From the NCBI RefSeq assembly GCF_057098645.1, contig NZ_CM169472.1: a DNA stretch of 64,000 nucleotides; one strand, written 5' to 3'. The notes beneath the pieces are model-generated. The model was not told the origin of the DNA, searched no databases, and saw only the letters and a program-made list of their open reading frames with translations. Each line of letters starts with the position of its first letter. Within the stretch, counting starts at the first letter, position 1. Position numbers and translations under genes: made by a program. Below, one piece after another: positions 37,897 through 43,510 of the stretch.

Positions 37897-38878
37897 GATA
37901 GTGCCCTTTTTCTGAGATGGAAAAAGGGTGTCATTCAAAATCGGCATACCTTCCTTTAATGTATTTATTTTCCCAATAAATATATTGAGATTTACCTCAT
38001 AATTACTTCCTAAAGTGTAATATTTTATTTTTTAATATATACGCCTACAATTTCCTGGAGTAAATAAATAAAAATTAACAAGCATAATAGTGCCATTGAT
38101 AAAATAGCATGCCATAAAAGGACTTTTCAGGGATGAGTAATATTGTTTATCTGACAGTAACGGGAGAACAACAAGGAAGCATCTCCGCAGGTTGTGGGAC
38201 TACTTAATCTATAGGTAATCGCTGGCAGAGCGGGCATGAGAATGAAATATTTACATTCTCACTCGCAAATAGCATTACTAATACGGGGCTTGGTTCACAG
38301 TTACAGGGTATAACATTTTGTAAATTAATTGATAAAAGCACTCCATTACTTATTAATTCCATTAACAATAATGAGCAATTATTTATGGAATTTGACTTTT
38401 ATAGAATCAATAGATTTGGCAGATGGGAAAAGTATTATTATATACAACTAAGAGGCGCTTTTTTATCGGCTATTCATCATCAGATCATTGAAAATCAACT
38501 GGATACAGAAACAATAACTGTTAGTTATGAATTTATCCTCTGTCAACATCTTATCGCAAATACCGAGTTCAGCTATTTGGTTGGCACTCCCTGAAAATTA
38601 TAACCGTTTGTTTTTACCAAATTCAAAAAACCAAACAAATAATGGTTTCAAAACGTTAAACAGCAAAGCTGTTGGCAGGCTACTTGCTGCTGGTGGCGTA
38701 TACAATGGGAACATTGAAGGTTTCAGAGATACTGCGGAAAAACTGGGTGGAGATGCAATCAAAGGCTATGATCAAATACTAAATGAAAAAACAGCGGGCA
38801 TAGCGATAGCAACAGCATCTATTCTTTTAACAAAGCGTTCTAAAGTTGATACATATACAGAAATAAATAGTTACTTAG

Positions 38879-40074
<1,196 letters not shown>

Positions 40075-40511
40075 TTAGGCAAACTTAGAGGTCAACAAAA
40101 ACTTCTTGATGGCATAGACATAATAGAAATAAAATACATTAAGAGACCTTCAAAAGACTTAGCTAACTTACGAAAGGAGTTTAACAAAACTGTAAGAAAA
40201 AATTTTCTTATCAAACTTGCAAAAACCTCCGAAGCATCTGGAAGATTCAACGCCGAAGACCTTTTAAGAATGAGAAAGGGCTATGTTCCTCTAAATTATA
40301 ATGTTCACCATAAACTATCTCTAGATGATGGTGGTACTAATGATTTCGAAAATTTAGTATTAATCGAAAACGAACCATATCATAAAGTTTTTACTAACAT
40401 GCAATCACGAATAGCTAAGGGAATATTAGTAGGTGAAAGCAAAATCACTCCCTGGGCCATTCCATCTGGCTCAATTTATCCTCCCATGAAAAATATTATG
40501 GAACCCACAAA

Positions 40512-41006
40512 ATGATGACTAAAACCCAAATAAACAAATTAATAAAAATGATGAATGATTTAGACTATCCATTTGAAGCACCGCTCAAGGAATCATTTAT
40601 TGAAAGTATAATCCAAATAGAATTTAATTCTAATTCAACTAATTGCCTGGAGAAGTTATGTAATGAAGTTAGTATTCTTTTTAAGAATCAACCTGATTAT
40701 CTTACTTTTTTAAGAGCAATGGATGGATTCGAAGTTAATGGATTGCGATTATTTAGCCTCTCGATTCCAGAACCTTCAGTTAAAAACCTTTTTGCCGTAA
40801 ATGAATTTTATAGAAATAATGATGATTTCATAAACCCTGATCTACAAGAACGGTTAGTGATCGGGGATGATAGCATTTCAATATTTACTTATGACATTAA
40901 AAGTAACTTTTTTGAAATTAGAGATAATATTGGCACAGAAAATATATTCAGTTCGTTTAGTGATTTCTCTTCATTCTTAAACGAAATCATGGACAGTTGT
41001 TCATAA
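40512..41006 (+). CDS. putative immunity protein for the upstream HNH toxin domain
   Basis: 164 aa ORF whose ATG overlaps the toxin stop (ATGA); acidic, very AT-rich; the position matches a toxin-immunity pair and may correspond to K-12 yrhA. Confidence 0.5.
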   Translation: MMTKTQINKLIKMMNDLDYPFEAPLKESFIESIIQIEFNSNSTNCLEKLCNEVSILFKNQPDYLTFLRAMDGFEVNGLRLFSLSIPEPSVKNLFAVNEFYRNNDDFINPDLQERLVIGDDSISIFTYDIKSNFFEIRDNIGTENIFSSFSDFSSFLNEIMDSCS

Positions 41007-41455
41007 TAATCAAAAGGAAACAAAAATCATTGTAAACCATGCCATCTTTTTAGAGATTACCACCAGAAAATTCCTTGTTCGAAATTTAGCAATGCAAGCT
41101 ATGGAAAAACTTACAACGGAACTACACTCCTTAAGTGAGATGGACCGAAGACATGTAGTCTCTATTTTAGCCGAAATAGCTAATGGCTATGATGATTTTA
41201 GTGACATGTTGATTTATTTAGAATTTTACCCAAATCATAAGATTCTGATATCTTAAATAAGAAAATCCCGTTCGAAGTTCTGAAAAAGAAATCACAAAAT
41301 ATTAGCAGATACTTATTTCGTGACTATATCTTATCCGATGAACTTTTTTCAAAACCAGCATTTAATAATATCTTTGACGAAGATGAATGCACCTTTGCTC
41401 AATGTATCACACAGGAATAATAATATAACACTCAACAATAATATTTATTATAATT

Positions 41456-41794
41456 ATGATTACTTATCACGACGCATTCGCGAAAGCGAACCATTACCTT
41501 GATGATGCAGATCTCCCGGTCGTCATTACTCTACATGGACGCTTTAGCCAGGGCTGGTATTTCTGTTTCGAAGCACGAGAATTTCTCGAAACTGGAGATG
41601 AGGCCGCGCGCTTAGCTGGTAACGCACCTTTTATTATTGATAAAGACAGTGGTGAAATTCATTCTCTGGGAACGGCAAAGCCGCTGGAAGAATATCTACA
41701 GGATTACGAAAAAAAAAGGCTACCTTCGGCTTGCCCTGACAAAATAGCCCTCTTCCCACGAAGAGGGCCGCTAACCTTAATACCCCGCAGTTAA
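41456..41794 (+). CDS. yrhB: small conserved protein, YrhB-like
   Basis: ORF starting MITYHDAFAKANHYLDDADLPVVITLHGRF; its 3' end overlaps the convergent ggt, so the true stop is uncertain. Confidence 0.6.
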   Translation: MITYHDAFAKANHYLDDADLPVVITLHGRFSQGWYFCFEAREFLETGDEAARLAGNAPFIIDKDSGEIHSLGTAKPLEEYLQDYEKKRLPSACPDKIALFPRRGPLTLIPRS

Positions 41795-43510
41795 ATCATC
41801 CACCGAGCGCGGGTCGGATGCACCATACAGCTCACCGTCCGGCCCAACCATAATGCTTTGTGTACTGCCCATCGCCTCTTTCAGCGCCACTTTCTGACCT
41901 TTTGCTTCCAGCAGCTTGAGCGTATCCGGGCTAAACCCTTTTTCGACACGCAGCTCGTCCGGCAACCACTGATGGTGGAAACGCGGCGCATTGGTCGCTT
42001 CGGCGACGTTCATGCCATAATCGATGCTATTCACCACCATTTGAAGCACTGTAGTGATGATCCGGCTCCCGCCAGGGCTACCGGTGACCAGCCAGGTTTT
42101 ACCGTCTTTCACCACAATGGTGGGTGACATCGATGACAGCGGGCGTTTGTTCGGCCCGACGGCGTTGGCATCACCGCCCACCAGCCCGTAAACGTTCGGT
42201 ACGCCCGGTTTGGCGGAGAAATCATCCATCTGGTTATTAAGCAGAATACCGCTCTCGCCCGCGACAATGCCCGTACCGAAGGTGGTGTTCAGCGTATAGG
42301 TCACCGCCACCGCGTTACCATCTTTATCCACCACTGAGTAATGGGTAGTTTGATTACTCTCATAAGGCGCAAGCTTGCCAGGGCGAATCTCGCTGGACGG
42401 TTTCGCTTTATTGATATCGATTTGCTCGGCAATAGATTTGGCATAGGCTTTATTGGTCAGCGCCTGCCACGGGACTTTCACAAAATCCGGGTCGCCAAGA
42501 TATTCCGAGCGGTCAGCGTAGGCATATTTCTCCGCTTCTGCCATGATCTGCATCGCGTCGGCGCTGCCAAAACCGTATTTCTTCATATCGAAGTTTTCCA
42601 GAATATTGAGGATTTGTACGATATGGATCCCGCCGGAGGATGGCGGTGGCATGGAGTAAACCTGATACCCGCGATAATCGCCGCTTATCGGTGTGCGTTC
42701 GACCGCTTTATACGCCGCTAAATCTTCTTTAGTGATCAGGCCACCGTTTTTCTGCATCTCCTGGGCAATCTGTTCCGCTATCGTGCCTTTGTAGAATTCG
42801 TCCGGGCCGTTTTCGGCAATCATCTCCAGGCTCTTTGCCAGGTTCGCCTGCACCAGCTTGTCGCCCTTTTTCAGCGGCTCGCCCTCTTTCCAGAAGATAG
42901 CCTTGCTGTTTTCGTGATTCGGCAGCACTTCGCTCCCGTAGGTTTTGAGATCGTCAGCCAGCGCGTCGTTAACGATAAAACCATCGCGTGCCAGTTTAAA
43001 CGCTGGCTGCACCACTTTGTTCAACGGCATTGTGCCGTATTTATCCAACGCCAGCGAGAAACCAGCGACCGTACCGGGCGTGCCGGAAGCCAGATGCGAA
43101 GTGAGTGATTTTTTGCTGTCCGGGTTGCCCTGGTCATCAAGGAACATATCGCGGGTCGCTTTGGCGGGTGCCATTTCGCGGAAATCGATAGCGGTGGTAT
43201 TGCCATTTTTCGAGCGGATCAGCATAAAACCACCACCGCCCAGATTCCCTGCCTGCGGATGCGTTACCGCCAGCGCGTAGCCCACAGCCACGGCGGCATC
43301 AACGGCATTCCCGCCCTCCTTGAGGATATCCACCCCCACCTGAGTGGCAGTAGCATCTACAGATGCCACCATCCCCTGTTTCGCGCGTACCGGATGGAAG
43401 ACATCTTCCTCCACGCCGTAAGAAACAGGAGGCGCGGCGGCGGCGCTAAAACAACTTCCTGAGAGCAGAGCAGCAATAGCCACCCGGCGTAAAAACGTCG
43501 GTTTTATCAT
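41777..43510 (-). CDS. ggt: gamma-glutamyltranspeptidase
   Basis: Start placed at MIKPTFLRRVAIAALLSGS (signal peptide) within the 586 aa ORF. Confidence 0.95.
   Translation of the reverse strand: MIKPTFLRRVAIAALLSGSCFSAAAAPPVSYGVEEDVFHPVRAKQGMVASVDATATQVGVDILKEGGNAVDAAVAVGYALAVTHPQAGNLGGGGFMLIRSKNGNTTAIDFREMAPAKATRDMFLDDQGNPDSKKSLTSHLASGTPGTVAGFSLALDKYGTMPLNKVVQPAFKLARDGFIVNDALADDLKTYGSEVLPNHENSKAIFWKEGEPLKKGDKLVQANLAKSLEMIAENGPDEFYKGTIAEQIAQEMQKNGGLITKEDLAAYKAVERTPISGDYRGYQVYSMPPPSSGGIHIVQILNILENFDMKKYGFGSADAMQIMAEAEKYAYADRSEYLGDPDFVKVPWQALTNKAYAKSIAEQIDINKAKPSSEIRPGKLAPYESNQTTHYSVVDKDGNAVAVTYTLNTTFGTGIVAGESGILLNNQMDDFSAKPGVPNVYGLVGGDANAVGPNKRPLSSMSPTIVVKDGKTWLVTGSPGGSRIITTVLQMVVNSIDYGMNVAEATNAPRFHHQWLPDELRVEKGFSPDTLKLLEAKGQKVALKEAMGSTQSIMVGPDGELYGASDPRSVDDLTAGY

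Follow-up and report, generated by a model that had tools for sequence, protein, structure and literature searches.

A disrupted toxin gene and an intact predicted immunity gene in the yhhZ-yrhA island of Escherichia coli

The primary description of the Hcp-ET1 toxin and its partner ETI1 is reportedly that of Ma et al. in Virulence in 2017, and the outliving of a toxin by its immunity gene is a familiar pattern in the polymorphic toxin field. Reviews summarise Hcp-ET1/ETI1 as an effector-immunity pair of E. coli (PMC6099711, PMC6730261). ETI1 is the gene downstream of Hcp-ET1 in strains 55989 and C227-11, and it is credited with neutralising the HNH DNase (bioRxiv 10.1101/2024.03.05.583533); the toxin, YhhZ, is a His-Me finger nuclease by classification (PMC5714182). 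In the survey of Zhang et al. (PMC3482391), Imm-SUKH is listed for HNH-fold toxins, and Imm35 is tied only to the papain-like peptidase toxin Tox-PL1. The equation of 55989 yrhA with ETI1 rests on secondary sources and on inspection of the locus. yhhZ and yrhA are an already annotated and experimentally characterised type VI secretion system (T6SS) effector-immunity pair.

We analysed this locus in a stretch of 64,000 nucleotides (NCBI RefSeq assembly GCF_057098645.1, contig NZ_CM169472.1), hereafter the window, where the gene order is yhhY-yhhZ-yrhA-yrhD-yrhB-ggt. The locus is one that has already been described, and a previous sequence-only reading of it proved correct in its main lines. Gene identities, lesions, homologies, the predicted fold, the selection pattern and the island borders were established directly. 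The tract at 40512-41455 had been called AT-richer than the rest of the window; its GC content is 0.297 (29.7%), compared with 0.516 for the window on average (sd among 944-bp stretches 0.047), and none of the other 944-bp stretches sampled in the window was equally low. When 40060-41800 was used as the query, the locus was found in 4504 of the 5426 complete E. coli genomes searched, 3759 of which cover at least 80% of the query, and the island is present in ∼70% of the genomes. Strain RM12761 (O145:H28), a close relative, is identical to the window at every aligned position here, the IS5 element excepted. Local alignments with the yhhY-yrhB intergenic region of strain JS316 placed the right edge of the AT-rich island at 41424-41455, similarity to this 'yrhB-only' allele resuming at ∼41440, 16 nt upstream of the yrhB start. 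Taken as a whole, the region is very probably the distal half of the yhhZ-yrhA island, an AT-rich and presumably horizontally acquired type VI effector-immunity cassette located between yhhY and yrhB/ggt. A search of the tract against Rfam returned one chance snoRNA match under the family threshold, a repeat search gave no meaningful repeats apart from the IS5 ends, and the PADLOC defence-system library gave no match. The sole match in the PHROGs library was to a family of unknown function, for YrhA.

Lesions in the toxin gene

Alignment with the intact yhhZ allele of strain 12867, together with translation, showed that yhhZ (tssD, Hcp-ET1) is a pseudogene in the window. Its 5′ part (38133-38878, plus strand) encodes the Hcp domain, which in the intact allele matches TIGR03344 Hcp1 at 3.8e-34 as well as Pfam T6SS_HCP, and the start of the C-terminal toxin module. 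This part carries a TAA nonsense codon at codon 25 (38205-38207) and a frameshifting 4-bp TTGG duplication at 38577-38580. After codon ∼248 the gene is split by an IS5-family element of 1196 bp (38879-40074, minus strand), recognised by its terminal inverted repeats, the TTAG target duplication that flanks it (38875-38878 and 40075-40078) and a minus-strand transposase ORF of 326 aa (39026-40006). The 3′ part of yhhZ (40079-40515, plus strand) follows with its frame open and a complete HNH (His-Me finger) nuclease region, whose HNH and Col-Pyo_DNase Pfam matches are weak and under curated cut-offs; the corresponding ORF in the ORF list (40060-40515, 151 codons) begins at a TTG within the IS5 end. 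Once the lesions are removed, the toxin differs from the intact allele at 20 of 392 positions, the stop codon being one of the 20. RefSeq describes yhhZ of RM12761 as 'frameshifted; internal stop'. The toxin had been judged dead from the letters alone, and in agreement with that judgement it would no longer be made or delivered in this strain because of the nonsense codon, the frameshift and the IS5 insertion.

Only RM12761 shares the nonsense codon and the 4-bp duplication with the window, and this IS5 junction was found in none of the 5426 complete E. coli genomes searched. For these reasons the three lesions look young, and they are probably both lineage-specific and recent.

Function, fold and retention of yrhA

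yrhA lies next to this triple-lesioned toxin gene and is intact (40512-41006, plus strand), as had been noticed. The 164 aa ORF is present in the ORF list, and its ATG (40512-40514) overlaps the TGA of the toxin frame (40513-40515) in an ATGA. The chance probability of an open frame of 164 codons at this composition is ∼8e-7. Because the start of yrhA overlaps the toxin stop, the two proteins are probably translated together in intact loci.

The encoded protein is RefSeq WP_000988496.1, and 163 of its 164 residues are identical in YrhA of strain 55989, which is encoded at the same locus by the gene after the Hcp-HNH gene. It matched the NCBIfam model NF038335 with 125.5 bits (cut-off 55; E 1.5e-36) over model positions 2-149 of 150, and this close family was found in Enterobacteriaceae and enterobacterial-looking contigs only. 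Inspection of 16 loci of other Enterobacteriaceae (Citrobacter, Kluyvera, Atlantibacter, Enterobacter, Lelliottia, Leclercia and others) showed a YrhA homologue directly 3′ of a homologue of the YhhZ C-terminal module in all 16, the N-terminal regions that carry the toxin module being Hcp, DUF8093 or others. These results support the proposal that yrhA is the cognate immunity gene of Hcp-ET1 (YhhZ, an Hcp-HNH DNase), with its function assigned by homology. YrhA/ETI1 would then bind and block the HNH DNase domain of the toxin.

Searches against immunity families, which the sequence-only reading had suggested, pointed to SUKH by way of relatives and of the predicted fold. YrhA itself matched no Pfam family at E≤1, so that there was no direct match to SMI1_KNR4, SUKH_5 or SUKH_6, and a direct sequence search of the PDB returned chance-level matches only. 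A profile of the YrhA family collected 125 proteins at E≤1e-3 among 1.8 billion; Pfam matches among the 96 aligned profile relatives were to SMI1_KNR4 (48), SUKH_6 (42) and SUKH_5 (28), and the same profile matched the PDB entry 2icg at 3.2e-6. An AlphaFold model obtained with distant relatives added to the alignment reached a pLDDT of 90.7 and a pTM of 0.87, compared with a pLDDT of 46.5 from an 18-sequence alignment. The best four PDB matches of the model in Foldseek were 2prv chains B and A (YobK), 2icg and 3d5p, with probability 1.0 and TM scores of 0.48-0.58. The transitive profile matches and the predicted structure, with its moderate TM scores, support the placement of YrhA in the SUKH (SMI1/KNR4) superfamily.

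Across E. coli lineages yrhA shows purifying selection (pN/pS 0.21), and 3.8% of its sites are variable, versus 11-14% in 41007-41455. Given this purifying selection and a toxin widespread among potential competitors, the benefit of immunity is obvious, and YrhA, if still expressed, should keep the cell immune to Hcp-ET1 from other E. coli. We infer from the sequence both the expression of yrhA downstream of IS5 and its present protective value. The gene may be poorly transcribed, because the IS5 element and a terminator-like hairpin inside it (plus strand, 38977-38990) stand between the yhhZ promoter and yrhA.

It is possible, although we hold this reading only tentatively, that the toxin was lost recently, that yrhA is useless in this strain and that its decay is still to come. 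Given lineage-specific and probably recent lesions in the toxin, an intact yrhA in one strain is by itself no proof of selection, and a gene of 495 bp is a small target for disabling mutations. Moreover, immunity is not always kept: comparison with K-12, which had also been suggested, revealed the opposite arrangement in K-12-like strains, where the toxin is intact and yrhA is cut by IS1. Such neutral retention is nevertheless at odds with the selection seen on yrhA across the species and with the value of immunity against a widespread toxin, and the neighbouring yrhD and X (see below) show that unneeded island genes do decay.

We consider it very unlikely that yrhA guards in an addiction-like manner against the cell's own leftover HNH nuclease (40060-40515), if weakly expressed, and not against competitors: the 151-codon ORF is open, keeps its HNH motif, still overlaps the yrhA start and has four substitutions relative to the intact allele, none inside the NVHHKL...N...H motif, but its sole upstream start is a TTG within the terminal repeat of IS5, a promoter-like site that might serve it (40106-40135) is downstream of that TTG, promoter-like sites in the tract are not enriched (10 found versus 12.3 expected in shuffled sequence), the first in-frame ATG is just upstream of the HNH motif, and K-12-like strains tolerate an intact yhhZ together with an IS1-cut yrhA.

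Small genes downstream of yrhA

The AT-rich tract downstream of yrhA contains the remains of two small genes, yrhD and a second gene that we call X, rather than spacer DNA. Small ORF remnants had been recognised here before, and they correspond to the decayed yrhD and to X at 41259-41417. The first of them had been described as an unannotated ORF of 54 codons at 41092-41256; the ORF and the translation quoted for it are real, but RefSeq carries it as yrhD in RM12761 and in the other E. coli inspected. The annotated yrhD (51 aa, ATG at 41101, 41101-41256) is the 3′ part, about two-thirds, of a pseudogene of a ∼91-codon small protein gene (40981-41256, plus strand), whose frame has 26 nt in common with the 3′ end of yrhA. 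Longer relatives were first noticed among the ORFs of a Leclercia locus and were then confirmed by alignment and HMM. yrhD is 38% identical to the Leclercia protein over 56 aa (E 4e-11), and the 91-codon frame aligns over its full length with proteins of Leclercia, Pantoea, Rahnella and Ralstonia. When an HMM of the family from which E. coli sequences had been excluded was run against the 1872 six-frame ORFs in the window, this ORF was its single match (E 1.1e-11). We also considered yrhD and the next open frame as one frameshifted gene of ∼105 codons, which was rejected since its halves match two unrelated families, the CDI-array family and the Citrobacter protein X.

In Leclercia, Pantoea, Rahnella and Ralstonia, genes of this yrhD-like family (∼82 aa, with a conserved N-terminal K-I-I-A-D-x-A-I-F-L-E-F motif) are located inside CDI toxin/immunity arrays, in the company of Imm63, Imm70, Imm33-like and DUF2247. 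In these genera the yrhD-like gene stands after complete toxin-immunity pairs, and because the toxins of those pairs are of unrelated types, it is not tied to one toxin. Searches with the family brought up nothing above the curated cut-offs of Pfam and NCBIfam, nothing in PADLOC or PHROG, and nothing in the PDB with a significant E-value. Weak tblastn matches in Deinococcus and Streptomyces (E ∼1e-2) had uninformative contexts and were not used as evidence. The family may represent an as yet undescribed group of proteins with an immunity or accessory role in polymorphic toxin systems, and the Hcp-ET1 island may once have had a member of it as a second, orphan immunity gene, a proposal that we hold only tentatively. 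A small protein family travelling in CDI immunity arrays has in any case been missed by current domain libraries.

The second remnant, X (41259-41423, plus strand), was identified by BLASTP, tblastn and an HMM. Its counterpart in Citrobacter youngae and C. koseri, an intact gene directly 3′ of yrhA, encodes an 85-aa hypothetical protein, of which the remnant covers residues 2-54 (BLASTP 42% over 53 aa, E 7e-14; tblastn 1e-9), and the X HMM had a sole match in the window, at +41241-41417 (E 3.4e-9). The remnant lacks a start codon and the 31 codons for the C terminus, and it terminates at TAATAA; K-12-like lineages have an additional stop at 41296. No annotation for the X family was found in Pfam or PDB searches. 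The candidate identification of X as a diverged YrhB/Imm35 protein was rejected (hhalign probability 1.9%, no Pfam or PDB match).

yrhB (41456-41794, plus strand), defined by Pfam, RefSeq and indel mapping, is outside 40512-41455 but part of the array. Residues 5-83 of its product match the whole Imm35 model (PF15567) at 6.7e-23, with 81.1 bits versus a cut-off of 27.5, and codons 1-85 show a pN/pS of 0.19. The loss of one T has left an A9 run at 41709-41717; through the resulting frameshift the final 9 residues are exchanged for others, and the ORF, now 112 aa long, runs on into the 3′ end of ggt; RefSeq notes the gene as 'frameshifted'. A peptidase toxin adjoining yrhB was absent in every allele inspected, so that yrhB would be an orphan.

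The sequence-only reading had likened the region to the orphan immunity-gene arrays found downstream of polymorphic toxin loci. Part of the likeness stands, namely a member of a family present in CDI arrays, the X remnant and an Imm35 gene; what does not is an orphan toxin fragment. It is thus improbable that 41007-41455 is an array of classical orphan modules, in which toxin C-terminal fragments each have their own immunity gene as in CDI/Rhs systems, even though a polymorphic toxin-immunity pair directly precedes the tract, members of the yrhD family sit in such arrays elsewhere and yrhB is an Imm35 gene without a toxin. tblastn with the YhhZ toxin module in related loci, a set that does not contain the window, found one copy in each, just upstream of the YrhA homologue. 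The tract itself had no match to a toxin family, and no Pfam domain was detected in the ORFs of 41007-41455. In other loci the yrhD-like gene follows complete pairs of differing toxin types, and yrhB is situated outside the island border and persists in strains where the island is absent. Because the remnants come without an orphan toxin fragment, the tract is not a classical orphan toxin-CT/immunity array, and an immunity role of the yrhD-like gene, suggested by its context, or of X is putative.

That yrhD is a genuine, functional gene for a 51-aa protein is highly improbable. RefSeq uses the label 'protein YrhD' in many genomes, and both the window and K-12-like lineages keep the 51 codons open. 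However, yrhD has a pN/pS of 1.40 and stop codons or a lost start in 4 of the 6 lineages compared, and its sites vary as often as those of the intergenic DNA on either side. When 5.8 billion proteins were searched with YrhD, E. coli sequences alone were returned, short-form homologues being limited to this species, whereas the homologous family is ∼82 aa long. In addition, the N-terminal motif best conserved in that family (K-I-I-x-x-x-A-I-F-L-E-F) is located in the same open frame but before the annotated start, and at the ancestral start position, 40981, the window has ACG in place of ATG. The RefSeq yrhD is therefore best read, from these alignments, as a pseudogene fragment of a longer gene and not as a 51-aa protein. 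Both yrhD and X appear to evolve without constraint.

Comparison with known systems

Polyimmunity arrays that follow CDI/Rhs toxins (Zhang et al. 2012, PMC3482391) resemble the window in having tandem, co-oriented small genes after the toxin: here the cognate immunity gene is followed by two small genes in decay and then by one of the Imm35 family. In contrast to those arrays, the window has no orphan toxin-CT fragments, two of its four genes are dead, and yrhB is outside the island border. With respect to the Imm35/YrhB family, yrhB matches the full model and is under purifying selection but differs in its missing Tox-PL1 neighbour and its frameshifted end.

Compared with SUKH proteins (SUKH-1 to -6; B. 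subtilis YobK 2prv, Lin2918 2icg, BF1740 3d5p), YrhA has a similar predicted alpha+beta fold and a similar putative role, immunity to an HNH nuclease toxin, although it is too divergent for a direct match to a Pfam SUKH model.

The closest system is the Hcp-ET1/ETI1 pair itself, with which the window has in common the chromosomal locus, the orientation and an ATGA-coupled immunity gene 3′ of the HNH toxin gene. What our analysis adds to that pair is modest and leaves the understanding of these systems unaltered. The window differs from the described pair in that the effector gene has been inactivated three times, once by IS5, and the immunity half alone is intact. All in all, the locus offers a clean case of asymmetric decay, in which the toxin has been struck three times and the immunity protein is unchanged.

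Locus, island borders and toxin lesions

The segment reads yhhX, yhhY, yhhZ, yrhA, yrhD, yrhB and ggt on an E. coli chromosome. When 40060-41800 was used as a megablast query, matches were obtained in 4504 of 5426 complete E. coli genomes, chromosomal in every case and with query coverage of at least 80% in 3759 of them, and the annotations beneath these matches were tssD/yhhZ, yrhA, yrhD, yrhB and ggt. Strain RM12761 (O145:H28) equalled the window at all aligned positions of the region, one insertion sequence excepted. The tract at 40512-41455 had been described as AT-richer than the rest of the window, and composition bore this out: its GC content was 29.7%, while the window averages 51.6% (sd 4.7%, stretches of equal size), and all 944-bp stretches sampled across it were richer in GC. 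Alignment showed that the island spans from the yhhY stop (37896) to about 41440, 16 nt 5' of yrhB. The yhhY-ggt locus is a replacement hot spot, for which three or more alleles were seen: JS316 carries yhhY, a 109-bp spacer (4905-5013 of its locus) and yrhB, without the island; O157:H7 LSU61 carries a 303-aa DUF4225 protein and ~730 bp of unannotated DNA (4392-6036 of its locus), without yrhB; and the window carries the Hcp-ET1 island together with yrhB.

Intact YhhZ comprises an Hcp domain (TIGR03344, 3.8e-34) and, C-terminal to it, a region in which the HNH signature is weak; it has been placed among the His-Me finger nucleases (PMC5714182). As Hcp-ET1, it has been reported to be an antibacterial DNase delivered by T6SS2 and neutralised by the downstream ETI1 (PMC6099711, PMC6730261, bioRxiv 10.1101/2024.03.05.583533). 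The sequence-only reading held this toxin to be dead. Excision of the insertion sequence and alignment to the intact yhhZ of strain 12867 agreed, revealing three lesions: a nonsense mutation at codon 25 (GAA to TAA, 38205-38207), a 4-bp duplication of TTGG (38577-38580), and an IS5-family element of 1196 bp (38879-40074), flanked by duplicated TTAG target sites and encoding its transposase on the other strand. The first two are common to RM12761, where RefSeq notes "frameshifted; internal stop", and the window's IS5 junction was found in none of the 5426 complete genomes searched. The locus is the known Hcp-ET1/ETI1 pair (yhhZ/yrhA), with the effector decayed in the window strain.

The AT-rich island apparently attracts insertion sequences. 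Independent IS5-family insertions lie at different places of tssD/yhhZ in other strains, one variant has IS5 within yrhD, and yrhA of K-12-like strains is interrupted by IS1. The yrhD variant displays the IS5-encoded tail GKVRISRSFLPKLTR, the one that terminates the truncated yhhZ ORF of the window.

Identity and family of YrhA

The predicted 164-aa ORF was present at 40512-41006, and its start overlaps the upstream stop (TGA) in the sequence ATGA, the coupling that had been claimed for it. RefSeq records an identical protein, WP_000988496.1, in toxin-proficient strains. The YrhA of strain 55989 shares 163/164 residues with it; the gene lies at the corresponding locus, directly 3' of the Hcp-HNH gene, and is named ETI1 in secondary sources (bioRxiv 10.1101/2024.03.05.583533). 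Judged by sequence, the ORF is most probably the cognate immunity gene of the yhhZ toxin.

YrhA matched the NCBIfam YrhA family (NF038335, 1.5e-36) and no Pfam model. A profile built from 18 enterobacterial homologues, searched against 1.8 billion representative proteins, recovered 125 proteins at E<=1e-3, and in the 96-sequence alignment derived from them Pfam matches were to SMI1_KNR4 (48), SUKH_6 (42) and SUKH_5 (28). The broadened profile also matched the SUKH structure 2icg (3e-6). AlphaFold failed on a shallow alignment (pLDDT 46.5) and gave pLDDT 90.7 and pTM 0.87 on a deep one; the top four PDB matches of the model were 2prv chains B and A (YobK), 2icg and 3d5p (SMI1/KNR4), all with probability 1.0 and TM 0.48-0.58, with a sharp score drop after them. 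Together, the profile matches and the predicted fold argue that YrhA belongs, as a divergent member, to the SUKH immunity superfamily. SUKH is the superfamily most often paired with HNH-fold toxins (PMC3482391).

The pairing extends to other genera. At the yhhY-ggt site of Citrobacter youngae an Hcp-HNH gene is followed by a YrhA homologue; in Leclercia, Kluyvera, Atlantibacter and Enterobacter the C-terminal toxin module of YhhZ (~215 aa, 50-69% identical) is joined to a DUF8093 N-terminal region, and in further taxa to still other N-terminal regions. A YrhA homologue lay directly 3' of the module in all 16 loci examined, which places the family in the toxin-immunity context on which the sequence-only reading had staked its claim. 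This pattern, in which the delivery domain is exchanged while toxin module and immunity gene stay the same, is the hallmark of polymorphic toxin systems.

Several of these loci show further features. The DUF8093-borne pair of Leclercia adjoins a CDI locus. In Citrobacter sp. NCU1 an additional N-terminal domain is present on the YrhA homologue, an ORF of 227 aa (3794-4477 of its locus), and the upstream toxin module is truncated, its match being confined to module residues ~7-79; one member of the YrhA-family alignment matches Pfam DUF4926 (3.7e-20) and may be a similar fusion. In C. youngae, yhhY and the hcp-HNH gene are separated by the gene for a hypothetical protein of 294 aa (2671-3555 of its locus), and an 83-87-aa protein, assigned to the MarR family in some records, is encoded between ggt and the Citrobacter counterpart of the second remnant discussed below (5807-6070). 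A YrhB homologue of 92 aa is present in other Citrobacter species.

Two decayed small genes and yrhB

The small ORF remnants noticed downstream of yrhA resolved into two decayed genes. The first, an ORF of about 54 codons at 41092-41256, does exist as described, but it is not unannotated: RefSeq has it as yrhD (51 aa, start 41101). Protein searches with the 51-54-aa form found relatives in E. coli only. Reading of the ORFs of the Leclercia locus revealed a ~82-aa protein that resembles the entire stop-to-stop frame 40981-41253 (38% over 56 aa, E 4e-11), the match taking in 27 codons upstream of the yrhD ATG, and tblastn found full-length relatives, 47-56% identical, in Pantoea, Rahnella and Ralstonia, where they lie on large replicons. 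Five sequences of this longer family could be aligned end to end and share the N-terminal motif K-I-I-x-D-x-A-I-F-L-E-F. With the database size scaled to a whole genome, an HMM of the four non-E. coli proteins matched just one of 1872 six-frame window ORFs, the long yrhD frame (E 1.1e-11). At the start position of this frame, the window and eight further E. coli loci read ACG; one divergent E. coli lineage has ATG there but a stop at codon 63. Thus the long gene is intact in none of the lineages sampled, and its lesions vary among them. In four of six lineages yrhD itself has a premature stop or a lost start, and RefSeq flags those four as pseudogenes. Annotated yrhD is best read as the tail of a pseudogene. 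At 41039-41053, where the long frame encodes the conserved AIFLEF motif, lies an ATG that is out of frame, with a T5 run after it; short-read contigs encode MPSFLEF... or MPSLEF..., implying that the T run differs in length, be it through assembly error or because the homopolymer really varies.

The long family lies within filamentous-haemagglutinin (CDI) loci in each of the other four genera, 3' of a complete toxin-immunity pair, and the type of toxin differs from case to case; the family's neighbours are Imm63, Imm70, Imm33-like or DUF2247 genes, or a deaminase toxin with DUF6911. The family had no match above curated cut-offs in Pfam or NCBIfam, none in PADLOC or PHROG, and no PDB sequence at a significant E-value. 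Its context makes it a candidate immunity or accessory protein.

The second remnant (41259-41417) matches residues 2-54 of an 85-aa hypothetical protein (42% over 53 aa, E 7e-14) whose gene lies 20 bp 3' of yrhA in C. youngae and is kept in C. koseri; an HMM of this protein matched only the remnant among window ORFs (E 3.4e-9). In E. coli the start codon and the final 31 codons are missing; the right junction near 41440 truncates the remnant, and K-12-like lineages have an extra stop. The protein matched no known family and is unrelated to YrhB. That yrhD and the following frame are a single frameshifted gene was rejected, as the two homologies are separate.

Beyond the island, yrhB (41456-41794) has a GC content of 46% and matches Pfam Imm35 (6.7e-23). 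Zhang et al. tied Imm35 solely to a papain-like peptidase toxin (PMC3482391); because no such toxin was found near yrhB, the gene is, judged by family, an orphan immunity gene. Loss of a T converts AAATAAAAAA into an A9 run (41709-41717), and the frameshift rewrites the last 9 residues and prolongs the ORF to 41794 (112 aa), past the ggt stop into the end of ggt. The extended ORF crosses the hairpin of the ggt terminator (minus strand, 41746-41769). Residues 5-83, which make up the Imm35 domain, are unaffected, so this 'pseudogene' may be functional.

Retention of yrhA and comparison with orphan immunity arrays

yrhA (pN/pS 0.21, 3.8% variable sites across six E. coli lineages) and yrhB (pN/pS 0.19) are constrained, whereas yrhD (pN/pS 1.40) and the second remnant are not, with 11-14% variable sites all through 41007-41455. 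We propose that YrhA would bind and block the HNH domain of the toxin, that yrhA may still be expressed in the window strain, and that it could have been kept because it protects when other E. coli fire Hcp-ET1. The promoter of yhhZ is separated from yrhA by IS5, which contains a terminator-like hairpin (38977-38990, plus strand). yhhZ and yrhA are among the K-12 'promoter islands' tabulated in a section on H-NS complex formation (PMC3661553), a listing that fits a silenced, horizontally acquired AT-rich island; a simple promoter scan of the window tract found no enrichment relative to shuffled sequence.

Retention could instead be neutral, the toxin lesions of the one strain examined being simply recent; K-12-like strains, with toxin intact and yrhA cut by IS1, show the reverse state, and we give this explanation a real, though less than even, chance. 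Downstream of IS5, the 3' fragment of yhhZ is a 151-codon open ORF (40060-40515) that begins at a TTG within the IS5 terminal repeat, spans the entire HNH nuclease region and retains the overlap with the yrhA start; its expression would yield a free nuclease domain in the cytoplasm, but that yrhA is needed for self-protection from it seems very improbable.

The locus was already annotated and its core pair characterised. What is new, but minor, is the probable status of yrhD as a pseudogene fragment, the second remnant, and an unrecognised CDI-array-associated family behind yrhD. The interpretation given by the sequence-only reading was essentially right. Taken as a whole, the locus falls outside the classical orphan toxin-CT/immunity arrays: such arrays have toxin fragments, and the window's extra genes are without any. 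The run is short and heterogeneous, made up of a cognate immunity gene that is still live, two small genes that are dead, and an Imm35 gene.
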